A DNA stretch of 64,000 bases, from the NCBI GenBank assembly GCA_930987745.1, contig CAKNKX010000006.1:799-64798 (forward strand). Direction: 5' to 3'. Position 1 is the first letter of the stretch. Every line of letters begins with the position of its first letter. A program made the position numbers and the translations under genes. The DNA comes from an uncultured Clostridium sp. GTDB taxonomy: Bacteria > Bacillota > Clostridia > TANB77 > CAG-508. Positions 13,176 through 30,373 of the stretch are shown piece after piece. Below the pieces are notes generated by a model. The model ran no database searches. It saw nothing but the letters and a program-made list of their open reading frames with translations, and had not been told where the DNA came from.

Positions 13176-13220
13176 TGGTTGCGGGGGTAAGACTCGAACT
13201 TACGACCTTCGGGTTATGAG
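13176..13220 (-). pseudogene. Orphan 3' half of initiator tRNA-fMet (anticodon-loop core CTCATAA through CCA)
   Basis: The reverse complement is ctcataacccgaaggtcgtaagttcgagtcttacccccgcaacca. It differs at one base (g for a in the variable region) from the 3' part of the intact tRNA at 25979-26054. No 5' half follows it. Confidence 0.85.
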
Positions 13221-20206: not shown

Positions 20207-21001
20207 TTAAACTCCAACACTTTTTGTTTCTGGTAATGTAGAACCACCATCTATTACAAAACTTTGTCCTGTAATATATGAAGATTCATTACTTGCCAAA
20301 AATGCTGCAAGTTCTCCTAATTCTTCTATTGTTCCTAGTCTTTTCATTGGGATTCCATCTGCTATTCCATCCACAACAGATTTTGGATTATTTGAATTAG
20401 AATCTTTTGCAATTCCTTCAACCATTGGTGTCATGATATATCCTGGAAGTATTGCATTAACTCTAATTCCTTTTTCAACTAGTTCTGCTGCTAATCCTTT
20501 TGTAAATCCTAAAAGTGCTGCTTTTGTAGTAGCATAGGCTACTTCTCCTGTATCTGCTACCATTGTTCCTGTTACAGATGAAAGATTAACAATTGCTCCA
20601 TCTTTTGGCATATATGGAACAAAGGCTTTTGAAACATTCCAACTTCCTTTTATATTTATATCAAAGTGATAATCTCTAATCTCATCTGGTGTTTCTAAAA
20701 ATGGTGTTAATTTAGCAACTCCTGCATTATTTACTAATACATCTACTTGTCCATATTTTTCATAAACTTCTTTTGCTATTTCATTTACTCTTTTGCTGTC
20801 TCTTATATCCACTTTATATCCTTCTACAGGTTCACCTTTTTCTTTAAAATCTGCAACAACCTCATCAATTTTGTCTGAATAATCTAAAATAATAACTTTT
20901 GCTCCATGTTTTAAAAATACTTTTACTATTCCTAAACCATTTCCCATAGCTCCACCTGTTACTACAGAGACTTTATTTTCTAATTTCATATTACCCTCCA
21001 A
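20207..21001 (-). CDS. SDR-family oxidoreductase (FabG/glucose dehydrogenase-like)
   Basis: 264 aa with cofactor motif VTGGAMGNGLG, NNAG, and catalytic YATTKAA (YxxxK). Confidence 0.9.
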   Translation of the reverse strand: MEGNMKLENKVSVVTGGAMGNGLGIVKVFLKHGAKVIILDYSDKIDEVVADFKEKGEPVEGYKVDIRDSKRVNEIAKEVYEKYGQVDVLVNNAGVAKLTPFLETPDEIRDYHFDINIKGSWNVSKAFVPYMPKDGAIVNLSSVTGTMVADTGEVAYATTKAALLGFTKGLAAELVEKGIRVNAILPGYIMTPMVEGIAKDSNSNNPKSVVDGIADGIPMKRLGTIEELGELAAFLASNESSYITGQSFVIDGGSTLPETKSVGV

Positions 21002-21571: not shown

Positions 21572-21588
21572 AACAAAGATTTAAACAT

Positions 21589-21626
21589 CGCGGGGTGGAG
21601 CAGTTGGCAGCTCGTTGGGCTCATAA
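21589..21626 (+). pseudogene. Orphan 5' half of initiator tRNA-fMet (5' end through anticodon-loop CTCATAA)
   Basis: cgcggggtggagcagttggcagctcgttgggctcataa is identical to the first 38 nt of the intact tRNA at 25979. Identity ends after CTCATAA, where aaatagggc follows. Confidence 0.9.
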
Positions 21627-21929: not shown

Positions 21930-23159
21930 ATGAAAGAAAATATAAAGTTAAAAAATATGAAAGGACAATTAGAAATAATGAAAACCTTAGGAATAAAGCC
22001 GAATTTTAGTGAATTAGAAAGAGCTTTTGAAATAGAAAGACATACAATAAAAAAATATTATGAAGGATATGAAGGAAAAAAAGCAAATAGAAATAAACCA
22101 TCGAAATTAGATAAATATTATGATGAAATTAAAAGTAAAATAGAATTAGTAGGAATTACTCAAATGGGATTGTACCAATATTTATACAATAAAGATAATT
22201 CCATAGGAACTTATTCAAATTTTAAAAAGTATTTAACAAAGCATGAATTAAAACCAAGTAAAAGTCAAAAAGTTCATTTAAGATATGAAACAGATTCCGG
22301 AGAACAGTTACAATTTGATTGGAAAGAAGATATAAAGATGATCAGCAAACATGGAGAAGTATTTGAATTTAATGTATTTTCTGCAACTTTAGGATATTCT
22401 AGATTACATGATTTTGTATATAGTAGAACAAAAACCAGAGAAGATGTAGAAAGATGTTTAATGACAACATTTAAATTTTTCAATGGTGTACCTAAACAAT
22501 TGTTAATTGATAACATGAGAGCAGTAGTTGATATTAATGGAAATAAAAGAACAGTAAATCCAGAATTTAATCAATTTGCTAAAGATATGGGTACTTGTGT
22601 GAAATTATGTAAGCCAAGGTCTCCTGAAACGAAAGGAAAAGATGAAACAGCCAATAAGTTCATGTCATGGTTAATACCATACAATCATGAATTTGAAGAT
22701 GAAGAAGAATTAATTAGAATTATTAAAAATATAAGAGATAAAGTTAATTCTACTGTTCATCAAACAACTAATGTACCACCTATCCTTTTGTTTCAAAAAG
22801 AAAAAGAATATCTTCTACCTTTGCCAAGCAATAAAGTCATGCTTTCTTACTTGGAAAATGTGGAGAAAACTAAGGTTTATCCCGATTCCTTAATTTACTA
22901 CAAAGGTAAAAAATATTCTGTTTCACCCAAATATATTAATCAGTATGTCCAATTAAAACAAACTGATAATATATTGTATATATATCATAATAAACAAATA
23001 ATAGCAACACATGAAATCAATTTAAAATTAATAAATTATGCTAAAGAACATTATGTAGAAGGTTTAACAATTTCTATGCCATATAAAGATAGATCTGACA
23101 TAGAAAAATATGCTAATGATAATTTGAAACGTTTAGATAGATTATTGGATGTAAAATAG
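21930..23159 (+). CDS. istA: IS21-family transposase IstA
   Basis: 409 aa with an N-terminal HTH and a DDE region (QFDWKE...LLIDNMRAVV...ETKGKDE). Confidence 0.9.
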   Translation: MKENIKLKNMKGQLEIMKTLGIKPNFSELERAFEIERHTIKKYYEGYEGKKANRNKPSKLDKYYDEIKSKIELVGITQMGLYQYLYNKDNSIGTYSNFKKYLTKHELKPSKSQKVHLRYETDSGEQLQFDWKEDIKMISKHGEVFEFNVFSATLGYSRLHDFVYSRTKTREDVERCLMTTFKFFNGVPKQLLIDNMRAVVDINGNKRTVNPEFNQFAKDMGTCVKLCKPRSPETKGKDETANKFMSWLIPYNHEFEDEEELIRIIKNIRDKVNSTVHQTTNVPPILLFQKEKEYLLPLPSNKVMLSYLENVEKTKVYPDSLIYYKGKKYSVSPKYINQYVQLKQTDNILYIYHNKQIIATHEINLKLINYAKEHYVEGLTISMPYKDRSDIEKYANDNLKRLDRLLDVK

Positions 23160-23209
23160 ATAAAGGATTTAAATAATATAAAATTAATAAAAAGAAAGAG
23201 GTAATTTTT

Positions 23210-23971
23210 ATGATATATAATCAAGTAATAAATAATTTACAAAAACTAAAATTAAATAAGATGAGTACATATTTATCAACATATTTAGATGAGATAAATA
23301 AAAATAATATTTCCTTTTTAGATGCACTTCTTAATCTTACTCAGAAAGAAATAGAATTTAAAGAACAAAGAGCTTCTGAATTTAATATACGAGTGGCTGG
23401 GTTTCCTTTTATTAGAACTTTAGATGAATTTGATTTCGATTTTCAACCAAGTATTAATAAAAAAGAAGTTTTAGATTTAGCAACACTTAGATTTATTGAA
23501 GAGAAGAAAAATGTTTTGTTAATTGGGTCTAGTGGTGTTGGCAAAACGCATATTGCAACAGCCATTGGCATTGAAGCTGCTAAAAAAAGAGTTAGTACAT
23601 ATTTCATTAGTTGTCATGATTTAATCACTAAACTTAATATTGCACATCAAGAAAATAGATTAAAGGATGCTTTAAAAACATTTAATAAATATAAGTTATT
23701 GATAATTGATGAGATTGGATATTTACCTGTAGACAAAAATGGTGCAAATTTACTGTTTCAATTAATTGCAAAAAGATACGAAAAAAGTTCTACCATAATA
23801 ACTACAAATCAGCAATTTTCTAAATGGGGAGAAATTTTTTCAGATAATATACTTGCTAATGCAATACTTGATAGATTATTACACCATTCGTATGTTTTTA
23901 ATATTACAGGTGATTCTTACAGATTAAAAGATATATTAAATAAAATGGAAAACTTTGACAATTCTATGTAA
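23210..23971 (+). CDS. istB: IS21-family helper ATPase IstB
   Basis: 253 aa with Walker A GSSGVGKTHIATAIG and Walker B LLIIDEIGYLP. Confidence 0.92.
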   Translation: MIYNQVINNLQKLKLNKMSTYLSTYLDEINKNNISFLDALLNLTQKEIEFKEQRASEFNIRVAGFPFIRTLDEFDFDFQPSINKKEVLDLATLRFIEEKKNVLLIGSSGVGKTHIATAIGIEAAKKRVSTYFISCHDLITKLNIAHQENRLKDALKTFNKYKLLIIDEIGYLPVDKNGANLLFQLIAKRYEKSSTIITTNQQFSKWGEIFSDNILANAILDRLLHHSYVFNITGDSYRLKDILNKMENFDNSM

Positions 23972-25453: not shown

Positions 25454-25799
25454 ATGAATAAATACAGAGGTTTAATAAAATGTGCAGAATGTAATCATAT
25501 ATTCAAACGGACGAAAAGAAAGAAATAATATAAACTATAGATGTAATTATAGATTAAAGTATGGAAAGGACAAATGTAATAATAATACTATGGTGGAAGA
25601 AACATTATTGACAGATATGATTAGGCAACAATTAGATGTTATTAACATGTGTATAGATAATGTAGATATTCAATCTATTGTTAAAGAAATTATTGTATCT
25701 AAAGATAGAATTGAAATATTTTTTAAAAACCTACCAATAATAAGTTGTTATCTTGATAGTAAAATGGGAAAATTGCATTTTGACTCTTTAAATGATTAA
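25454..25799 (+). pseudogene. Remnant of a large serine recombinase (C-terminal zinc-ribbon and coiled-coil part only, with a frame break)
   Basis: MNKYRGLIKCAECNHIFK (frame 0, stop after 24 codons) continues in +1 as GRKERNNINYRCNYRLKYGKDKCNNNTMVEETLL. Together these form the C..C...Y.C...C zinc-ribbon pattern of large serine recombinases. The N-terminal catalytic domain is absent. Confidence 0.6.
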
Positions 25800-25962: not shown

Positions 25963-25978
25963 GAAAAATGTCAAACAT

Positions 25979-26054
25979 CGCGGGGTGGAGCAGTTGGCAG
26001 CTCGTTGGGCTCATAACCCAAAGGTCGTAAGTTCGAGTCTTACCCCCGCAACCA
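25979..26054 (+). tRNA. Initiator tRNA-fMet (anticodon CAT)
   Basis: 76-nt cloverleaf. There is a C1-A72 mismatch (CGCGGGG...CCCCGCA-A-CCA). The anticodon stem has three G-C pairs, GGG-CTCATAA-CCC. The T-arm is GGTCGTAAGTTCGAGTC. These are hallmarks of bacterial initiator tRNA. Confidence 0.93.
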
Positions 26055-26059
26055 AATTC

Positions 26060-26081
26060 GAGGCTTTAAGCCTCTTTTTTT
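26060..26081 (+). terminator. Rho-independent terminator after tRNA-fMet
   Basis: GAGGCTTTAAGCCTC hairpin followed by TTTTTTT. Confidence 0.8.
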
Positions 26082-26634: not shown

Positions 26635-27660
26635 TCATTCTATTTTGGAACCTTTTGATCTATTACATTTCCAACATAAAGTTTGCAAGTTTTCTTCTGT
26701 TGTCATTCCGTTTTTTGATATAGGAATTATATGGTCAATTTCTAAAAGAAGATTAGGTTCTTTTTCAATTGAATTTCCACATTTACAACAAGTATAATTA
26801 TCTCTTTGTTTTATTTTTTCTCTCAATTGTGTCGTCATTAGTGCTCTTTGGCCTGCTGCACTTTTTCTAAATTTAACTAATTCACTTAAATATATAACAA
26901 ATTTATTAAGATTTTCTATATCAAAAGTTATATTACATTGCATTGAACTATTTCCACCAGAACTAGTATATTTAAAAGTATATTGAGGAAAATACAATTG
27001 ACTAAAATCTATATCCTTAAAACCTAATTTTCTAATCAATCTTTTTTTGTTAAATGTTTTTATCAATAATGGAACCTTATCGCTAATGCTATTAACAATG
27101 TTGTCTCTTTCATTTTTCAATAAATTTTTACCTTGTTCTGCAGCTGAAAAGTCATTTAAAACATTTTCAAATTTTTCAAGATTTTCCTCTGTTGGTTTTA
27201 TATTAAAATATTTACAAATGTATTTAAAAGGTTGCATTCTCGCATTACTGCAAACTGTTCTAGAACAATTATATATATTTTTTGCCTCTTGATATTTTCG
27301 TAAAGCTGGTCTTTTATAGTTCCATCTACTATTATCTATATAATTAGCAGTACCATAATCTATCCTTTTTATATCAGCATAAGTATTTTTTAAATTTTCG
27401 ATATGTTCGTTTAATTCATTACATTTATTTGTATTTTCTTTTATGCTATTTTTAATTTCAAGAAATTTATCAGAATTATAGTAAAAACATGTATATATAT
27501 CATATACCCAGCCTATTCCAAATAATCCAAATGTTAATAAATATATAATTCCTATTCCATATTCTTTTTCAATAAATTTATGAACACCTAACCAACCTAA
27601 TAATATAGTTAGTATTAATTCGTTATTATTTTTTTGATTTTGATTCATTATTTCCTCCAT
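26635..27660 (-). CDS. TM2-domain membrane anchor fused to a C-terminal HNH endonuclease
   Basis: 341 aa. The N-terminus LTILLGWLGVHKFIEKEYGIGIIYLLTFGLFGIGWVYDIY is TM2-like. The C-terminus is CCKCG...EIDHIIPISKNGMTTEENLQTLCWKCNRSKG, an HNH/His-Me finger with flanking CxxC pairs. Confidence 0.8.
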   Translation of the reverse strand: MEEIMNQNQKNNNELILTILLGWLGVHKFIEKEYGIGIIYLLTFGLFGIGWVYDIYTCFYYNSDKFLEIKNSIKENTNKCNELNEHIENLKNTYADIKRIDYGTANYIDNSRWNYKRPALRKYQEAKNIYNCSRTVCSNARMQPFKYICKYFNIKPTEENLEKFENVLNDFSAAEQGKNLLKNERDNIVNSISDKVPLLIKTFNKKRLIRKLGFKDIDFSQLYFPQYTFKYTSSGGNSSMQCNITFDIENLNKFVIYLSELVKFRKSAAGQRALMTTQLREKIKQRDNYTCCKCGNSIEKEPNLLLEIDHIIPISKNGMTTEENLQTLCWKCNRSKGSKIE

Positions 27661-27815: not shown

Positions 27816-28337
27816 TTATATTGTTGATAGTATAAATGCAATGAAATTTGCAATGAATGCTACAATCATACACCAAGCACACAATAATAGAGTTCTATTA
27901 TTTTTTTGTTTATATTTATAAAAATAAACAACTGCTGAAAATCCAAATAATAAAGTTGTATAACCAGAACATTCTATATTTTTAATAAGAGAATATATAA
28001 TAATAATTGCAATTGTTACTAATATAAATATAGTTCCAATAGTAACACTTTTATAGTGATTAAACTCAGATAATTTTATAATATTTTCTTCTGATTTTTC
28101 TTTTATCTTATCTTCTGGTATTTTTTCTCCTGCTAAAATATCATTTACACTAACACCCAGTATTTCACTTAATGGCTTTAAAAGCGACATATCCATTAAG
28201 CAGATTCCTCTTTCCCATTTGCTAACTGCATTTTTGCTTATATTTAATTTTTCTGCTAATTGCTCTTGAGTTAGTTTTTTATCCTTACGGCAATTTGCAA
28301 TAAATTGACCTATTTTTATTTTATCCATACTTACCAC
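27816..28337 (-). CDS. XRE-family HTH regulator with C-terminal transmembrane segments
   Basis: 173 aa with HTH KLTQEQLAEKLNISKNAVSKWERG and about three C-terminal TM helices. Confidence 0.8.
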   Translation of the reverse strand: MVSMDKIKIGQFIANCRKDKKLTQEQLAEKLNISKNAVSKWERGICLMDMSLLKPLSEILGVSVNDILAGEKIPEDKIKEKSEENIIKLSEFNHYKSVTIGTIFILVTIAIIIIYSLIKNIECSGYTTLLFGFSAVVYFYKYKQKNNRTLLLCAWCMIVAFIANFIAFILSTI

Positions 28338-28496: not shown

Positions 28497-29843
28497 TCAT
28501 TTGATATTATTAATATTTTCAAATAAATCTTCTTCTGTAATTATTTGAATTAAGCTTCCTTTTTCTTGTAGTTCTTGTGCTTTAGCAATCTTTCCACCAA
28601 TATTACCATATTTCCAAGCATCACTTCCAAGACCACCAACAAATAAATAATCTAATTTAGTAGATACACCACTTTTTTCTATTGCACCCAGATTTTCTAA
28701 TTTTTGTTTTATCTCTGATTTGGTTCCATTTTTAAAATCTCCTGTTAAACAAAATGTTTTTCCATTTAGTTTGATACTTTTATTATTACTACATATTGGA
28801 TTTAATATTTCATTAAAGCTCAATGCTAAATCTTCTTTTTCATTTTCAGTTAATATTCCATCTTCCAAAACTTTATTAACAATTAATAATACCTTATCAT
28901 ATGGATAAACACCACTTAAATAATCATTTTTAATAAGCCATATTTTTAAATTTTCTATTTCTTCAATTACAATTTTTTTATCACAAGCAATACCTTCAAG
29001 TATTCCTTGTAAAATTTGTAAGTTTAATGTTGTTTCATTATACATATTCGAAGATTGTATGCTGTTTACTAGACCTAACAGTTCAATCTTCTCATATTTT
29101 GTTATAATTCCATCTTCTAAAATAGAACTTAGTTCAGTTAATATTTTATTAAATAATGAATATTGTTTGTAAATTACATTTTCATCTAGCCATTTATTCA
29201 ATAGGTTAATCTCATATTGATTGATTATTCCATCATAATTAATTCCTTTAATGATGCCATATAATGAATTAATATTAGAAGATAATTTAGAATCAATATT
29301 GTCTTTAACTGTAAATTCATATTCATATTGCTTCGCTTGTAAATTATCAATATTGTAATGTTCACTTAAGTATCTAAAAAGATAATAAGTAGTAACTGCA
29401 TCTTCCAAAGCATTATGAGGATTATAATTAACATTTAAAAATTGAGCTATTGATGTTAGTTTGTATGAATCTAAATTTAAAAATTTCCTACTTAATTCTA
29501 AAGTACAACAATAATTAAATAAAGGCACATCAATATTATATCTACTTAATGATTTTTCTAATACACTTAGATCATACAATACATTATGTCCAACAATGAT
29601 ATTATTCTCAAGTAGTTCTTTAATCTCATACCAATAATCTTTTAAAGTAGGACTTTGCAATACCATATTAGATGTTATACCTGTAATTTCAGAATTTTTA
29701 ATATCAAATCTATCTTCAGGATTTATTAATGAATATTTTTTATCAATTATTTCATTATCTTTTACAACTATGATTGCAATAGAGCAAATAGAATTTCCTC
29801 TCGCATTTGGATTTTCTAAATCCATAATTACATAATTTTTCAT
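28497..29843 (-). CDS. DnaQ-like DEDDh 3'-5' exonuclease, four internal repeats, and a C-terminal BRCT domain
   Basis: 448 aa. Exo I is VIMDLENPN, Exo II is VGHNVLYDLSVL and Exo III is HNALEDAVTT. Four repeats of about 40 aa are of the type (E/Y)DGI(I/L)T..E...L. The C-terminus GKTFCLTGDF...LDYLFVGG...KAQELQEKGSLIQIITEEDL resembles the LigA-type BRCT domain. Confidence 0.8.
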   Translation of the reverse strand: MKNYVIMDLENPNARGNSICSIAIIVVKDNEIIDKKYSLINPEDRFDIKNSEITGITSNMVLQSPTLKDYWYEIKELLENNIIVGHNVLYDLSVLEKSLSRYNIDVPLFNYCCTLELSRKFLNLDSYKLTSIAQFLNVNYNPHNALEDAVTTYYLFRYLSEHYNIDNLQAKQYEYEFTVKDNIDSKLSSNINSLYGIIKGINYDGIINQYEINLLNKWLDENVIYKQYSLFNKILTELSSILEDGIITKYEKIELLGLVNSIQSSNMYNETTLNLQILQGILEGIACDKKIVIEEIENLKIWLIKNDYLSGVYPYDKVLLIVNKVLEDGILTENEKEDLALSFNEILNPICSNNKSIKLNGKTFCLTGDFKNGTKSEIKQKLENLGAIEKSGVSTKLDYLFVGGLGSDAWKYGNIGGKIAKAQELQEKGSLIQIITEEDLFENINNIK

Positions 29844-29857
29844 AAAATCAACTCTTT

Positions 29858-30373
29858 CTAAATATTTTTATTCTTACCATAGAATATTTTTCCTGATTCA
29901 AGATTTCCTTTATATTGGCATCCTTTTGCAAATTTTTTATCTGGATTAGTACATTTCAAGGAATCTGAGCATTCGATATATCTAGAGCAACAGCCAAAAT
30001 TATCAGTTGGTTCGTTTGAATACAAATATTTATATATTTCTTTTATCTCTGTATCCAATTTATTTATATCTTCAATACTATCTAAATATATCTTAGCATA
30101 TAACTCATTTTCTTTATATTTAACATTTTCAAATTCTTTTGATAGTTTATCTAGATTGACACAATCTAATTTTCTAATTTCGACAAACATTTTTGCTTTC
30201 TGAAATGTAATTTTTAGCAGAATATTCTTGAATACCATAAAAGAAACTGAACTATTTTTATTAACATTGACTGTTATTTTTTCTCTTTCATCTTGTGATA
30301 TAATTTCTACACTTATATTACTTACTATATTATTTAATATTTCTAAAATTTTATTTTCCATGTTTTCCTCCAT
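29858..30373 (-). CDS. Hypothetical protein with a Cys-rich C-terminus
   Basis: 171 aa. The C-terminal motif is FGCCSRYIECSDSLKCTNPDKKFAKGCQYKGNLESGKIFYG. Its stop lies 14 nt upstream of the exonuclease-BRCT start, so the two are probably an operon. Confidence 0.6.
   Translation of the reverse strand: MEENMENKILEILNNIVSNISVEIISQDEREKITVNVNKNSSVSFMVFKNILLKITFQKAKMFVEIRKLDCVNLDKLSKEFENVKYKENELYAKIYLDSIEDINKLDTEIKEIYKYLYSNEPTDNFGCCSRYIECSDSLKCTNPDKKFAKGCQYKGNLESGKIFYGKNKNI

Follow-up and report, generated by a model that had tools for sequence, protein, structure and literature searches.

A gene in the window (the whole 64,000-nt stretch of DNA from an uncultured Clostridium sp. analysed here) encodes a predicted membrane-anchored HNH nuclease belonging to a family of more than 5,800 protein clusters in at least eight phyla, with 50-80% identity between members. 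We give about an even chance to the reading that members of this family are single-protein defence or superinfection-exclusion nucleases, carried on mobile elements and cutting entering DNA at the membrane. The defence reading rests on the position of the gene in prophage lysogeny modules across the family, the fusion of some members to Ltp repeats and the mobility of the family as a single gene, and these same features lend support to the exclusion or defence effector proposed in an earlier note on this DNA. The gene and the parts of its product are as follows.

26635..27660 (−): membrane-anchored HNH nuclease gene, ORF of 341 aa; translation probably begins at 27648 (337 aa)
27496..27618 (−): TM2-type two-helix membrane hairpin, aa 15-55 (Pfam PF05154)
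26875..27483 (−): family-specific core, aa 60-262, without family match (AF2 model)
26638..26874 (−): basic pre-HNH helices and Cys4 HNH (beta-beta-alpha-Me) nuclease (PF01844, PF14279)

The ORF at 26635..27660 (−) is real, and all of the motifs quoted in the earlier note are present in its translation. Since a second ATG at 27648 is preceded by GGAGG with a spacing of 5 nt, the window protein probably starts there and has 337 aa; it is 100% identical to a cluster in the database that is also 337 aa long. TM2 was matched at residues 15-55 (PF05154, E 5.7e-13, 49.3 bits, gathering cut-off 27.9), and the AF2 model places helices at residues 2-30 and 34-62 as a hairpin with a short linker. At the other end of the protein, PF01844 matched aa 291-338 (26647-26790; E 1.6e-13, 51 bits, cut-off 21.4) and PF14279 gave a second match (E 8.7e-9). 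A structure search with the AF2 model returned McrA, Gme HNH and Cas9 HNH as matches to the HNH fold, with probabilities of 0.99-1.0. The catalytic and zinc residues C291, C294, D309, H310, N324, C329, C332 and N333 are invariant across 59 relatives, and C291, C294, C329 and C332 make up the CxxC...CxxC structural zinc site of the Cys4 subclass. The basic pre-HNH and HNH part has a mean net charge of +7. Judged by its catalytic residues the HNH domain is intact, from which nuclease activity is predicted. With PF05154 and PF01844 both above their cut-offs and the middle ∼200 aa falling into no family, the architecture of anchor, unmatched middle and HNH described earlier holds.

No family in Pfam, NCBIfam, PADLOC or PHROG matched the central ∼200 aa. 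In the AF2 model (pLDDT 83.6 for the whole window protein and 81.3 for the alpha/beta domain modelled alone) the core runs from juxtamembrane helices (64-96) through a disordered linker (97-117) into an alpha/beta domain (118-262), and has a conserved C80/H86/C132/C137/C149 cluster and the F.Y.S.GG hairpin. Searches with the whole window protein against PDB and BFVD gave no fold match for the core, a fold search with the core alone gave a best match at E 1.4 and probability 0.05, and a profile search against PDB sequences gave no known family or fold. The PADLOC library (v2.0.0, 2023) recognises only the HNH part of the window protein, its PtuB models matching at residues 243-339 only.

The gene lies in a four-gene block bordered by a tRNA, with the following neighbours.

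25979..26054 (+): initiator tRNA-fMet, CAT anticodon; borders the island
27816..28337 (−): XRE-type HTH regulator with C-terminal membrane domain (Pfam HTH_3 and DUF6442); upstream neighbour
28497..29843 (−): DEDDh exonuclease, TerB-like repeats and BRCT protein (Pfam RNase_T and BRCT)
29858..30373 (−): ORF for a 171-aa Cys-rich protein, left-most of the four-gene accessory block

The tRNA was correctly described as initiator type, since, besides the CAT anticodon, it has mismatched C1 and A72 and an anticodon stem with GGG/CCC; a bidirectional terminator lies beside it at 26060-26074. The HNH gene has intergenic regions of its own, as had been observed, the upstream one being 155 nt long and the downstream one 580 nt. 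Matches resembling promoters were no commoner there than in shuffled sequence, and promoter and terminator scans were uninformative in DNA of 23% GC. From 26.1 to 30.73 kb the DNA is accessory: when six related species are compared, homology restarts sharply at ∼30.73 kb, and none of the island proteins, including the 171-aa protein, is present in those species. The GC content of the island (22.9%, compared with 25.7% for the window) is not distinctive, and no compositional anomaly was seen. The HNH gene contains no in-frame CGG codon. Of the tRNA-adjacent accessory island proposed earlier, the accessory, horizontally acquired character is supported. The tRNA as integration site of the HNH gene is not supported, the tRNA-derived repeats bounding other elements. 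One of them (21583-21626) is a copy of the 5′ half of tRNA-fMet and bounds a different element of 4.39 kb, which lies beyond the tRNA; the other, at 13176-13198 (−), is a copy of its 3′ end. Within the window the HNH gene is not inside any recognisable prophage. The upstream neighbour is a membrane-bound XRE regulator, as reported, with HTH_3 followed by a DUF6442 membrane tail. The functional coupling suggested for this pair was not borne out by co-occurrence, since in tblastn the regulator turned up in the vicinity of just 2 of the 169 homologous loci, matched there by its HTH part only.

Identities between members are 53-81% over Bacillota, Bacteroidota, Pseudomonadota, Saccharibacteria, Melainabacteria and other groups. 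Full-length members were found in none of 24 other species of the genus, in one of 16 in the order and in one of 400 in a sample of the phylum; judged by these comparisons, the family is accessory, patchy and horizontally spread across phyla. The core and HNH are kept throughout and the N-terminal anchor varies, being TM2, one or two plain helices, or a zinc ribbon with helices. Mean pairwise identity falls from 0.73 in the HNH to 0.53 in the core and 0.21 in the N-terminus. TM2 occurs in about 37 of the 120 nearest clusters and in few of the more distant ones. TM2 is not supported as the defining anchor of the family; it is one of several interchangeable anchors, a variable adaptor.

At least one TM helix was predicted ahead of the core in 419 of 454 members, by a predictor crude enough to miss the first TM2 helix of the window protein itself, and the anchor is joined directly to the core in at least 92% of members. 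The positive-inside rule places the core in the cytoplasm in 360 members and outside in 35, with 24 tied. In members with a single helix, no tail precedes it and the stretch that follows is rich in K/R. Two members (P0026 and P0053) begin with a zinc ribbon followed by two helices, and a third (P0192) carries DEDDh, BRCT and Lsr2 DNA-binding domains C-terminal to the HNH with no helix between. Because of the charge bias and these fused domains, we infer that the core and nuclease face the cytoplasm, the opposite of the outward-facing HNH that the earlier note had named as counting against its proposal. An extracytoplasmic surface nuclease, with core and HNH turned outward and acting on external DNA (nutrient uptake, competence as for EndA, biofilm or NET) or on phage DNA outside the membrane, is very improbable. 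Membrane-bound nucleases of such a type do exist in mycoplasmas and pneumococci, the 35 members scored as core-out would suit it, and the Ltp repeats fused after the HNH in some members belong canonically on the outer face of the membrane. It is opposed by the single-helix members and by the fusions just described, and there is no signal peptide or lipobox. In addition, the two predicted Cys-rich metal sites, one in the core and one in the HNH, fit the cytoplasm, and a place in the lysogeny module would be unexpected for a nutritional nuclease.

That place is seen in prophage contigs, where the gene order is immR-immA-[HNH gene]-int. The two upstream same-strand genes encode an HTH repressor and an ImmA M78 peptidase in all five lineages tested, and the next large downstream gene on the same strand is an integrase in all ten lineages tested (four tyrosine and six serine recombinases). 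In viral loci the gene lies at most 4 kb from the downstream contig end in 56 of 80 cases and near the upstream end in 12 of 80, and the bias to the downstream end recurs in 14 of the 23 clusters formed at 85% identity. The ltp gene of TP-J34 occupies this slot of the lysogeny module; in the lysogen it is transcribed (PMC3952083). The 147 flanking genes represent 140 families, the commonest being integrases, XRE regulators and ImmA; the family has no conserved partner gene.

Phage HNH genes are often selfish or serve the phage life cycle, and a homing endonuclease encoded on its own, or an HNH tied to packaging or the terminase, neither having a part in defence, would suit a family so mobile and so highly conserved across phyla, whose PHROG matches are all annotated 'HNH endonuclease'. 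Homing and free-standing phage HNH proteins would be expected to be small and soluble, with genes that lie in introns or inteins or belong to a lytic or packaging module. The window protein differs in being membrane-anchored and in carrying a conserved extra domain of 200 aa, both foreign to homing and packaging HNH proteins, and its family sits in the lysogeny module, grouped and co-oriented with lysogeny genes. Terminase accounts for only one of 104 neighbouring genes in viral loci, and members are found also at non-phage chromosomal sites and on small plasmids. We consider such a role quite improbable here.

Two members (P0127 and P0130) are fused to 3-6 Ltp repeats C-terminal to the HNH, a mobilizable plasmid of Psychrobacter encodes an Ltp-repeat fusion member, and two family members lie beside Ltp genes. 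A fusion search among long members returned nearly exclusively a single Lachnospiraceae subfamily of 542 aa that carries no further Pfam domain. The family resembles Ltp of Streptococcus phage TP-J34 and the lactococcal Sie2009-type proteins in its place in the lysogeny module of temperate Firmicute phages, its association with the membrane and its horizontal movement as a 'moron'. Ltp, however, is a lipoprotein of the outer face that blocks injection without enzymatic activity, whereas the window protein gave no PF07553 (Ltp) match in the Pfam search and carries a nuclease predicted to be cytoplasmic. The outside action of canonical Ltp repeats fits poorly with a cytoplasmic core in the Ltp fusions, which counts against the defence reading given here.

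To our knowledge, SNIPE, described in 2026, is the only characterised membrane-bound nuclease acting at the phage injection step, and literature searches found no described membrane-anchored HNH defence protein. A membrane-tethered nuclease, called unusual in the earlier note, is thus no longer without precedent. In E. coli, SNIPE (also PD-lambda-1) cuts phage DNA as it is being injected (Saxton et al., Nature 2026, PMC13190303); its nuclease and anchor are both needed for safe defence, and among its homologues the nuclease is most conserved and the N-terminus very variable (PMC13190303). The HNH family shares with SNIPE a single-protein design ordered as N-terminal anchor, middle domain and C-terminal nuclease, a ranking of identity from nuclease through middle to N-terminus as in SNIPE homologues, and a scattered distribution across phyla on mobile elements. 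The bulk of SNIPE is cytoplasmic by experiment; for the HNH family the same orientation is predicted from charge bias and fused domains. Its nuclease is HNH, unlike the GIY-YIG (T5orf172) of SNIPE. The core was also considered as a homologue of SNIPE DUF4041 and rejected, there being no Pfam hit up to E 10 and a probability of 0.1% in hhalign against five DUF4041 and GIY-YIG proteins. By these comparisons the two are not homologous and the likeness is analogy only; a core unrelated to DUF4041 and of no known fold counts against cleavage at entry.

The HNH part itself, over residues ∼243-340 only, finds its best sequence and fold matches in McrA, Gme HNH, Cas9/IscB HNH and the PtuB models. It is of the same Cys4 type as the HNH of McrA-type type IV restriction enzymes and Septu PtuB, but those proteins are soluble and the window protein has neither a PtuA ATPase partner nor a modified-DNA reader; no ATPase adjoins the window gene, whose neighbours are the XRE-type gene and a non-coding stretch. 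T4 Imm and Sp are phage-encoded inner-membrane exclusion proteins that stop incoming DNA. P22 SieA is a prophage-encoded inner-membrane protein that does so too (PMC10883804). Unlike the window protein, SieA, Imm and Sp have no nuclease domain, and they show no sequence relationship to it.

If the family cuts DNA at entry, the N-terminal hairpin (TM2 in the window protein) would anchor the protein in the cytoplasmic membrane, with the core and HNH hanging into the cytoplasm and the tether holding the nuclease off the nucleoid. As foreign DNA, above all phage DNA, came through the membrane, the core would recognise either that DNA or the complex through which it enters, and cleavage by the HNH domain would follow. 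Adaptors to the entry machinery may be provided by the variable part, N-terminal or extracytoplasmic, and in some members by the fused Ltp repeats. Both the target and the timing of cleavage are what we infer from these comparisons. A core identity of 50-80% across phyla is high for a binder of fast-evolving phage proteins, and suggests that DNA or a conserved host component fits better.

The same anatomy and context would also serve abortive infection, in which a nuclease held inactive at the membrane is released or activated on infection and degrades host and phage DNA, so that the cell dies before progeny are made. SNIPE deprived of its TM helix is toxic through its nuclease, making such proteins latent toxins (PMC13190303), and the high conservation of the core fits a general cue, such as membrane perturbation, over particular phage proteins. 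Against this, the family shows no conserved protease site, partner or antitoxin, its anchor is nearly always joined directly to the core, and the Ltp-repeat fusions point to the injection step. Computation cannot separate abortive infection from cleavage at entry; we judge the former unlikely.

Cleavage at entry might in some lineages involve a second enzyme. The DEDDh-BRCT protein of the window matches the PADLOC candidate PDC-S48 (E 1e-30) and phrog_3989 (E 6e-59), and can be aligned over its whole length to the C-terminal half of the fusion P0192, an actinobacterial-type protein. In a Geomonas locus (L061) the family gene is followed, after 45 nt, by a homologous TerB-like/BRCT module. By the Rosetta-stone fusion, the DEDDh-TerB-BRCT protein is a possible occasional partner. 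General co-localisation was not found, such genes lying at one of 169 loci in addition to the window and the one fusion, which makes this a lead and not a rule. The literature search found nothing on PDC-S48 or on DEDDh-BRCT defence. The 171-aa gene is 14 nt upstream of the DEDDh gene, and its Cys-rich product belongs to no family in Pfam, PADLOC or PHROG searches. We tentatively propose, at somewhat less than even likelihood, that the family represents a second, independent form of DNA cutting at membrane entry, built from a new Cys/His-metal sensor domain and an HNH with interchangeable adaptors (TM2, plain helices, zinc ribbon with helices, Ltp repeats), which in some lineages has a DEDDh-TerB-BRCT exonuclease, either as a fused part or as a cooperating protein, to process the cut ends; the four-gene block at 26.6-30.4 kb would then be a composite defence island.

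With one gene of ∼1 kb and obvious catalytic and anchor mutants, the reading is easily testable. If true, it would give a function to thousands of 'HNH endonuclease' genes in gut Bacillota, Bacteroidota, Proteobacteria and CPR bacteria and their prophages, and would define a new domain recognising entering DNA or the entry apparatus. It would also add another prophage-borne barrier to superinfection, of relevance to gut-phage ecology and phage therapy. Should the family work like SNIPE, cutting DNA where it enters would turn out to be a widespread immune strategy reached by convergence rather than a lone curiosity.

The 341-aa open reading frame at 26635..27660(-) and the motifs quoted for it in the earlier note are present, and the proposed fusion of a TM2 anchor to an HNH nuclease was borne out by Pfam, which placed both domains far above the curated cut-offs:

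Domains of the TM2-HNH protein, (-) strand
Residues 15-55: TM2 hairpin (Pfam E 5.7e-13)
Residues 291-338: HNH nuclease (Pfam E 1.6e-13)

A second ATG at 27648 is preceded by GGAGG at a spacing of 5 nt, and one database cluster, 337 aa long, matches the window protein at 100% identity; 337 aa, with a start at 27648, is therefore the probable true length. The central region, in which no motif had been recognized, lacks a Pfam match over its middle 230 aa, also when searched alone at E values up to 10. Matches from PADLOC, NCBIfam and PHROGs were confined to the HNH end and comprised PtuB, restriction-enzyme, IscB/Cas9 and 'HNH endonuclease' models. The HNH, together with the helices preceding it, has an average net charge of +7. 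The source genome holds one full-length copy only.

The region around the gene is crowded with mobile elements:

Features of the TM2-HNH locus
21930-23971: IS21 element (istA/istB)
25482-25799: serine-recombinase zinc-ribbon remnant
25979-26054, (+) strand: initiator tRNA-fMet, 580 nt downstream of the TM2-HNH gene
26635-27660, (-) strand: TM2-HNH
27816-28337, (-) strand: XRE-TM
28497-29843, (-) strand: DEDDh exonuclease with TerB-like repeats and BRCT (PADLOC PDC-S48, E 1e-30; phrog_3989)
29858-30373, (-) strand: 171-aa protein

The tRNA is of the initiator type, as had been claimed: C1 is mismatched with A72, and its anticodon stem has GGG/CCC. Its 5′ half plus 6 nt upstream forms one copy of a perfect 44-nt direct repeat (21583-21626 and 25973-26016, 4,390 bp apart), and the 4.39-kb segment inside looks like an element inserted into the tRNA 5′ half or anticodon loop; it holds the IS21, two small membrane-protein genes, an RNAP-alpha-CTD-like ORF and the serine-recombinase remnant. 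An exact 23-nt copy of the tRNA 3′ end lies 12.8 kb away at 13176-13198(-), where zero are expected by chance, which suggests that tRNA-fMet took part in a second integration or in an inversion. These tRNA-derived repeats bound other elements, not the block of four same-strand genes at 26.6-30.4 kb, which lies on the opposite side of the tRNA and is without flanking tRNA-derived repeats. Homology with six related species resumes at 30.72-30.73 kb, in an ABC transporter operon, and none of the four block proteins is present at this region in any of them; on this comparison the block is judged accessory, in keeping with the island the earlier note had described. In one related species (L186, G169:C8) the SDR gene (20207-21001) has a homologue 164 bp from the ABC operon, inverted relative to the window. 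About 9.7 kb of the window (21.0-30.7 kb) is therefore inserted or rearranged relative to this species. The gene is rare per genome: searches of 24 other species in the genus gave no full-length member, and it turned up in 1/16 genomes from the rest of the order and in 1/400 of the phylum sample.

Beyond the genus, a search of 5.8 billion protein clusters returned 5,875 family matches, the best 120 of which share 57-100% identity over core (aa 60-262) and HNH; exhaustively searching the representatives at 50% identity yielded 174 of them at E ≤ 1e-30, and at least 551 relatives emerged when one genome was scanned for each prokaryote species. A literature search found no published description of this TM-core-HNH family. 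TM2-HNH is a real, intact, accessory gene of a large, previously undescribed family. Mean pairwise identity among 59 non-redundant members falls from 0.73 in the HNH to 0.50-0.53 in the core and 0.21 in the N-terminus. About 37 of the best 120 clusters have a TM2 N-terminus; others start with one bare hydrophobic helix at residue 1-3, have two helices, or place a zinc ribbon ahead of a helix pair. Because the N-terminus varies among these arrangements, the family trait is membrane anchoring, not TM2 itself. C-terminal additions include SHOCT alone (member P0010) and a zinc ribbon with SHOCT (P0098). A 542-aa Lachnospiraceae subfamily (P0449, P0380), whose members have a single helix at the N-terminus and ~250 additional aa, is very abundant (2,220 matches at E ≤ 1e-20; one sequence on 342 contigs); the additional residues repeat the Y.S.GG hairpin motif of the core, which suggests that its central domain is duplicated. 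Core and HNH identities of 53-81% were found with members from Bacillota, Bacteroidota, Pseudomonadota, Saccharibacteria (CPR), Melainabacteria, Desulfovibrio (Desulfobacterota), Geomonas, Acidobacteriota and Bifidobacteriaceae MAGs. Such cross-phylum identity (genome loci L010-L089) is unusually high for a defence-type gene, and implies that the family has spread widely and recently by horizontal transfer, that it is strongly constrained, or both.

AlphaFold2, given the 59-sequence family alignment, produced a model (pLDDT 83.6, pTM 0.71) in which two long N-terminal helices form the hairpin. Further helices span residues 64-96; residues 97-117 are disordered, and between them and the HNH lies an alpha/beta domain (118-262) containing a conserved F.Y.S.GG beta hairpin. 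Foldseek searches of PDB and BFVD with this model matched the HNH part only (McrA, Gme HNH, Cas9 HNH); the core modelled alone (pLDDT 81.3) had no match in PDB (best E 1.4, probability 0.05), and profile searches of PDB sequences gave nothing outside the HNH. Within the core (26875-27483(-)), C80, H86, C132, C137 and C149, all non-HNH positions, are kept in at least 92% of 59 relatives, which suggests a second metal site that may connect the juxtamembrane helix with the core domain.

The side of the membrane on which the HNH lies, a check called for by the earlier note, was predicted by a crude script combining hydropathy with the positive-inside rule, which overlooked the weakly hydrophobic first TM2 helix of the window protein. 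At least one helix precedes the core in 419 of 454 members, and the core was assigned to the cytoplasmic side, the one rich in K/R, in 360 of these and to the outer side in 35, with 24 tied. Fused domains lend a cytoplasmic core independent support. Members with a zinc-ribbon N-terminus have two helices or a TM2 hairpin ahead of the core (P0053, P0026). In P0192, DEDDh exonuclease, BRCT and Lsr2 DNA-binding domains follow the HNH with no further helix; all three are taken to be cytoplasmic domains. Single-helix members begin straight with the helix, the same N-out/C-in layout that has been established experimentally for SNIPE, a membrane-anchored anti-phage nuclease of E. coli (PMC13190303). 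Pointing against a cytoplasmic core are P0127 and P0130, in which the HNH is followed by 6 and 3 Ltp repeats, respectively, since Ltp normally acts at the outer face of the membrane (PMC3952083). An outward-facing nuclease is nevertheless the least probable of the readings weighed, and the core and HNH are likely to be cytoplasmic.

The 147 immediate neighbour genes in other genomes spread over 140 Pfam families, and the family gene therefore has no conserved partner; integrases (8), XRE HTH regulators (4-5) and ImmA peptidases (4) are commonest. The neighbouring XRE-TM protein, by Pfam an HTH_3 regulator whose membrane tail is DUF6442, had been put forward for a co-occurrence check, which gave little support: it recurs near homologues at 2 of 169 loci, by its HTH part only. 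The DEDDh gene does so at 1 of 169 and the other neighbours at none. P0192 (896 aa) fuses TM, core and HNH to the DEDDh-TerB-BRCT architecture, and the window DEDDh protein aligns end to end with its residues 395-814 (21% identity, E 5e-13). In Geomonas propionica, a 310-aa TerB-like and BRCT protein (L061:6609-7541) encoded 45 nt downstream of the family gene is 29% identical to the window DEDDh protein over 282 aa (E 4e-38). These associations (fusion, adjacency and near-adjacency) are three independent cases in three phyla and hint at occasional cooperation, a lead only because 168 of 169 other loci lack it.

At least 121 relatives were found in IMG/VR. At 56 of 80 viral loci no more than 4 kb separates the gene from the downstream contig end, against 12 of 80 where it is near the upstream end; the same test on genome loci gave 25 versus 23, without asymmetry. 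The downstream-end pattern occurs in 14 of 23 clusters (85% identity) and is therefore not that of one lineage alone. In 10/10 lineages tested, the next large gene downstream on the same strand encodes an integrase (4 tyrosine, 6 large serine recombinases). The two upstream same-strand genes encode an XRE-type repressor and an M78 peptidase (ImmA/IrrE) in 5/5 lineages tested; the order is thus immR-immA-[TM-HNH]-int, shared by elements whose integrases are unrelated, and viral-locus neighbour tallies agree with this setting. This slot is the lysogeny module, the same one occupied by ltp, the superinfection-exclusion gene of Streptococcus phage TP-J34, which is transcribed in the prophage (PMC3952083). 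An Ltp gene lies beside the HNH gene at 2 viral loci, and a core-HNH-Ltp fusion travels as cargo on a mobilizable Psychrobacter plasmid of 10.6 kb. In the Mycobacterium abscessus prophage prophiGD13-2 (L190), gp29, an 'HNH endonuclease' with 40% identity over 87% of the protein, forms with two small genes a block (genes 27-29) that opposes the transcription of the flanking replication and packaging genes. That the protein is a selfish HNH, or one serving the phage life cycle, is considered very improbable.

By way of working, SNIPE, of a kind known since 2026, would be the nearest known system. Its membrane anchor is joined to a middle domain, DUF4041, that binds DNA and the tape measure protein, and to a GIY-YIG nuclease; it has a variable N-terminus and cuts phage DNA during injection, tethering averting self-cleavage (PMC13190303). 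The family resembles it in layout, predicted topology, conservation gradient and single-gene mobile lifestyle. Membership is ruled out because two of the features that define SNIPE are missing: DUF4041 is absent (hhalign gave a probability of 0.1% in comparison with five DUF4041 and GIY-YIG proteins), and an HNH takes the place of the GIY-YIG nuclease. The family is accordingly best described as a putative analogue of SNIPE. Of the two roles suggested in the earlier note, abortive infection is rather unlikely, while entry exclusion survives as cleavage of foreign DNA at the entry stage, for which the chances are about even; what probability remains belongs to explanations outside the four considered. 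Taken together, these data indicate that the family most likely represents a membrane-localised nuclease defence, in which the tethered HNH would cleave foreign DNA as it enters.
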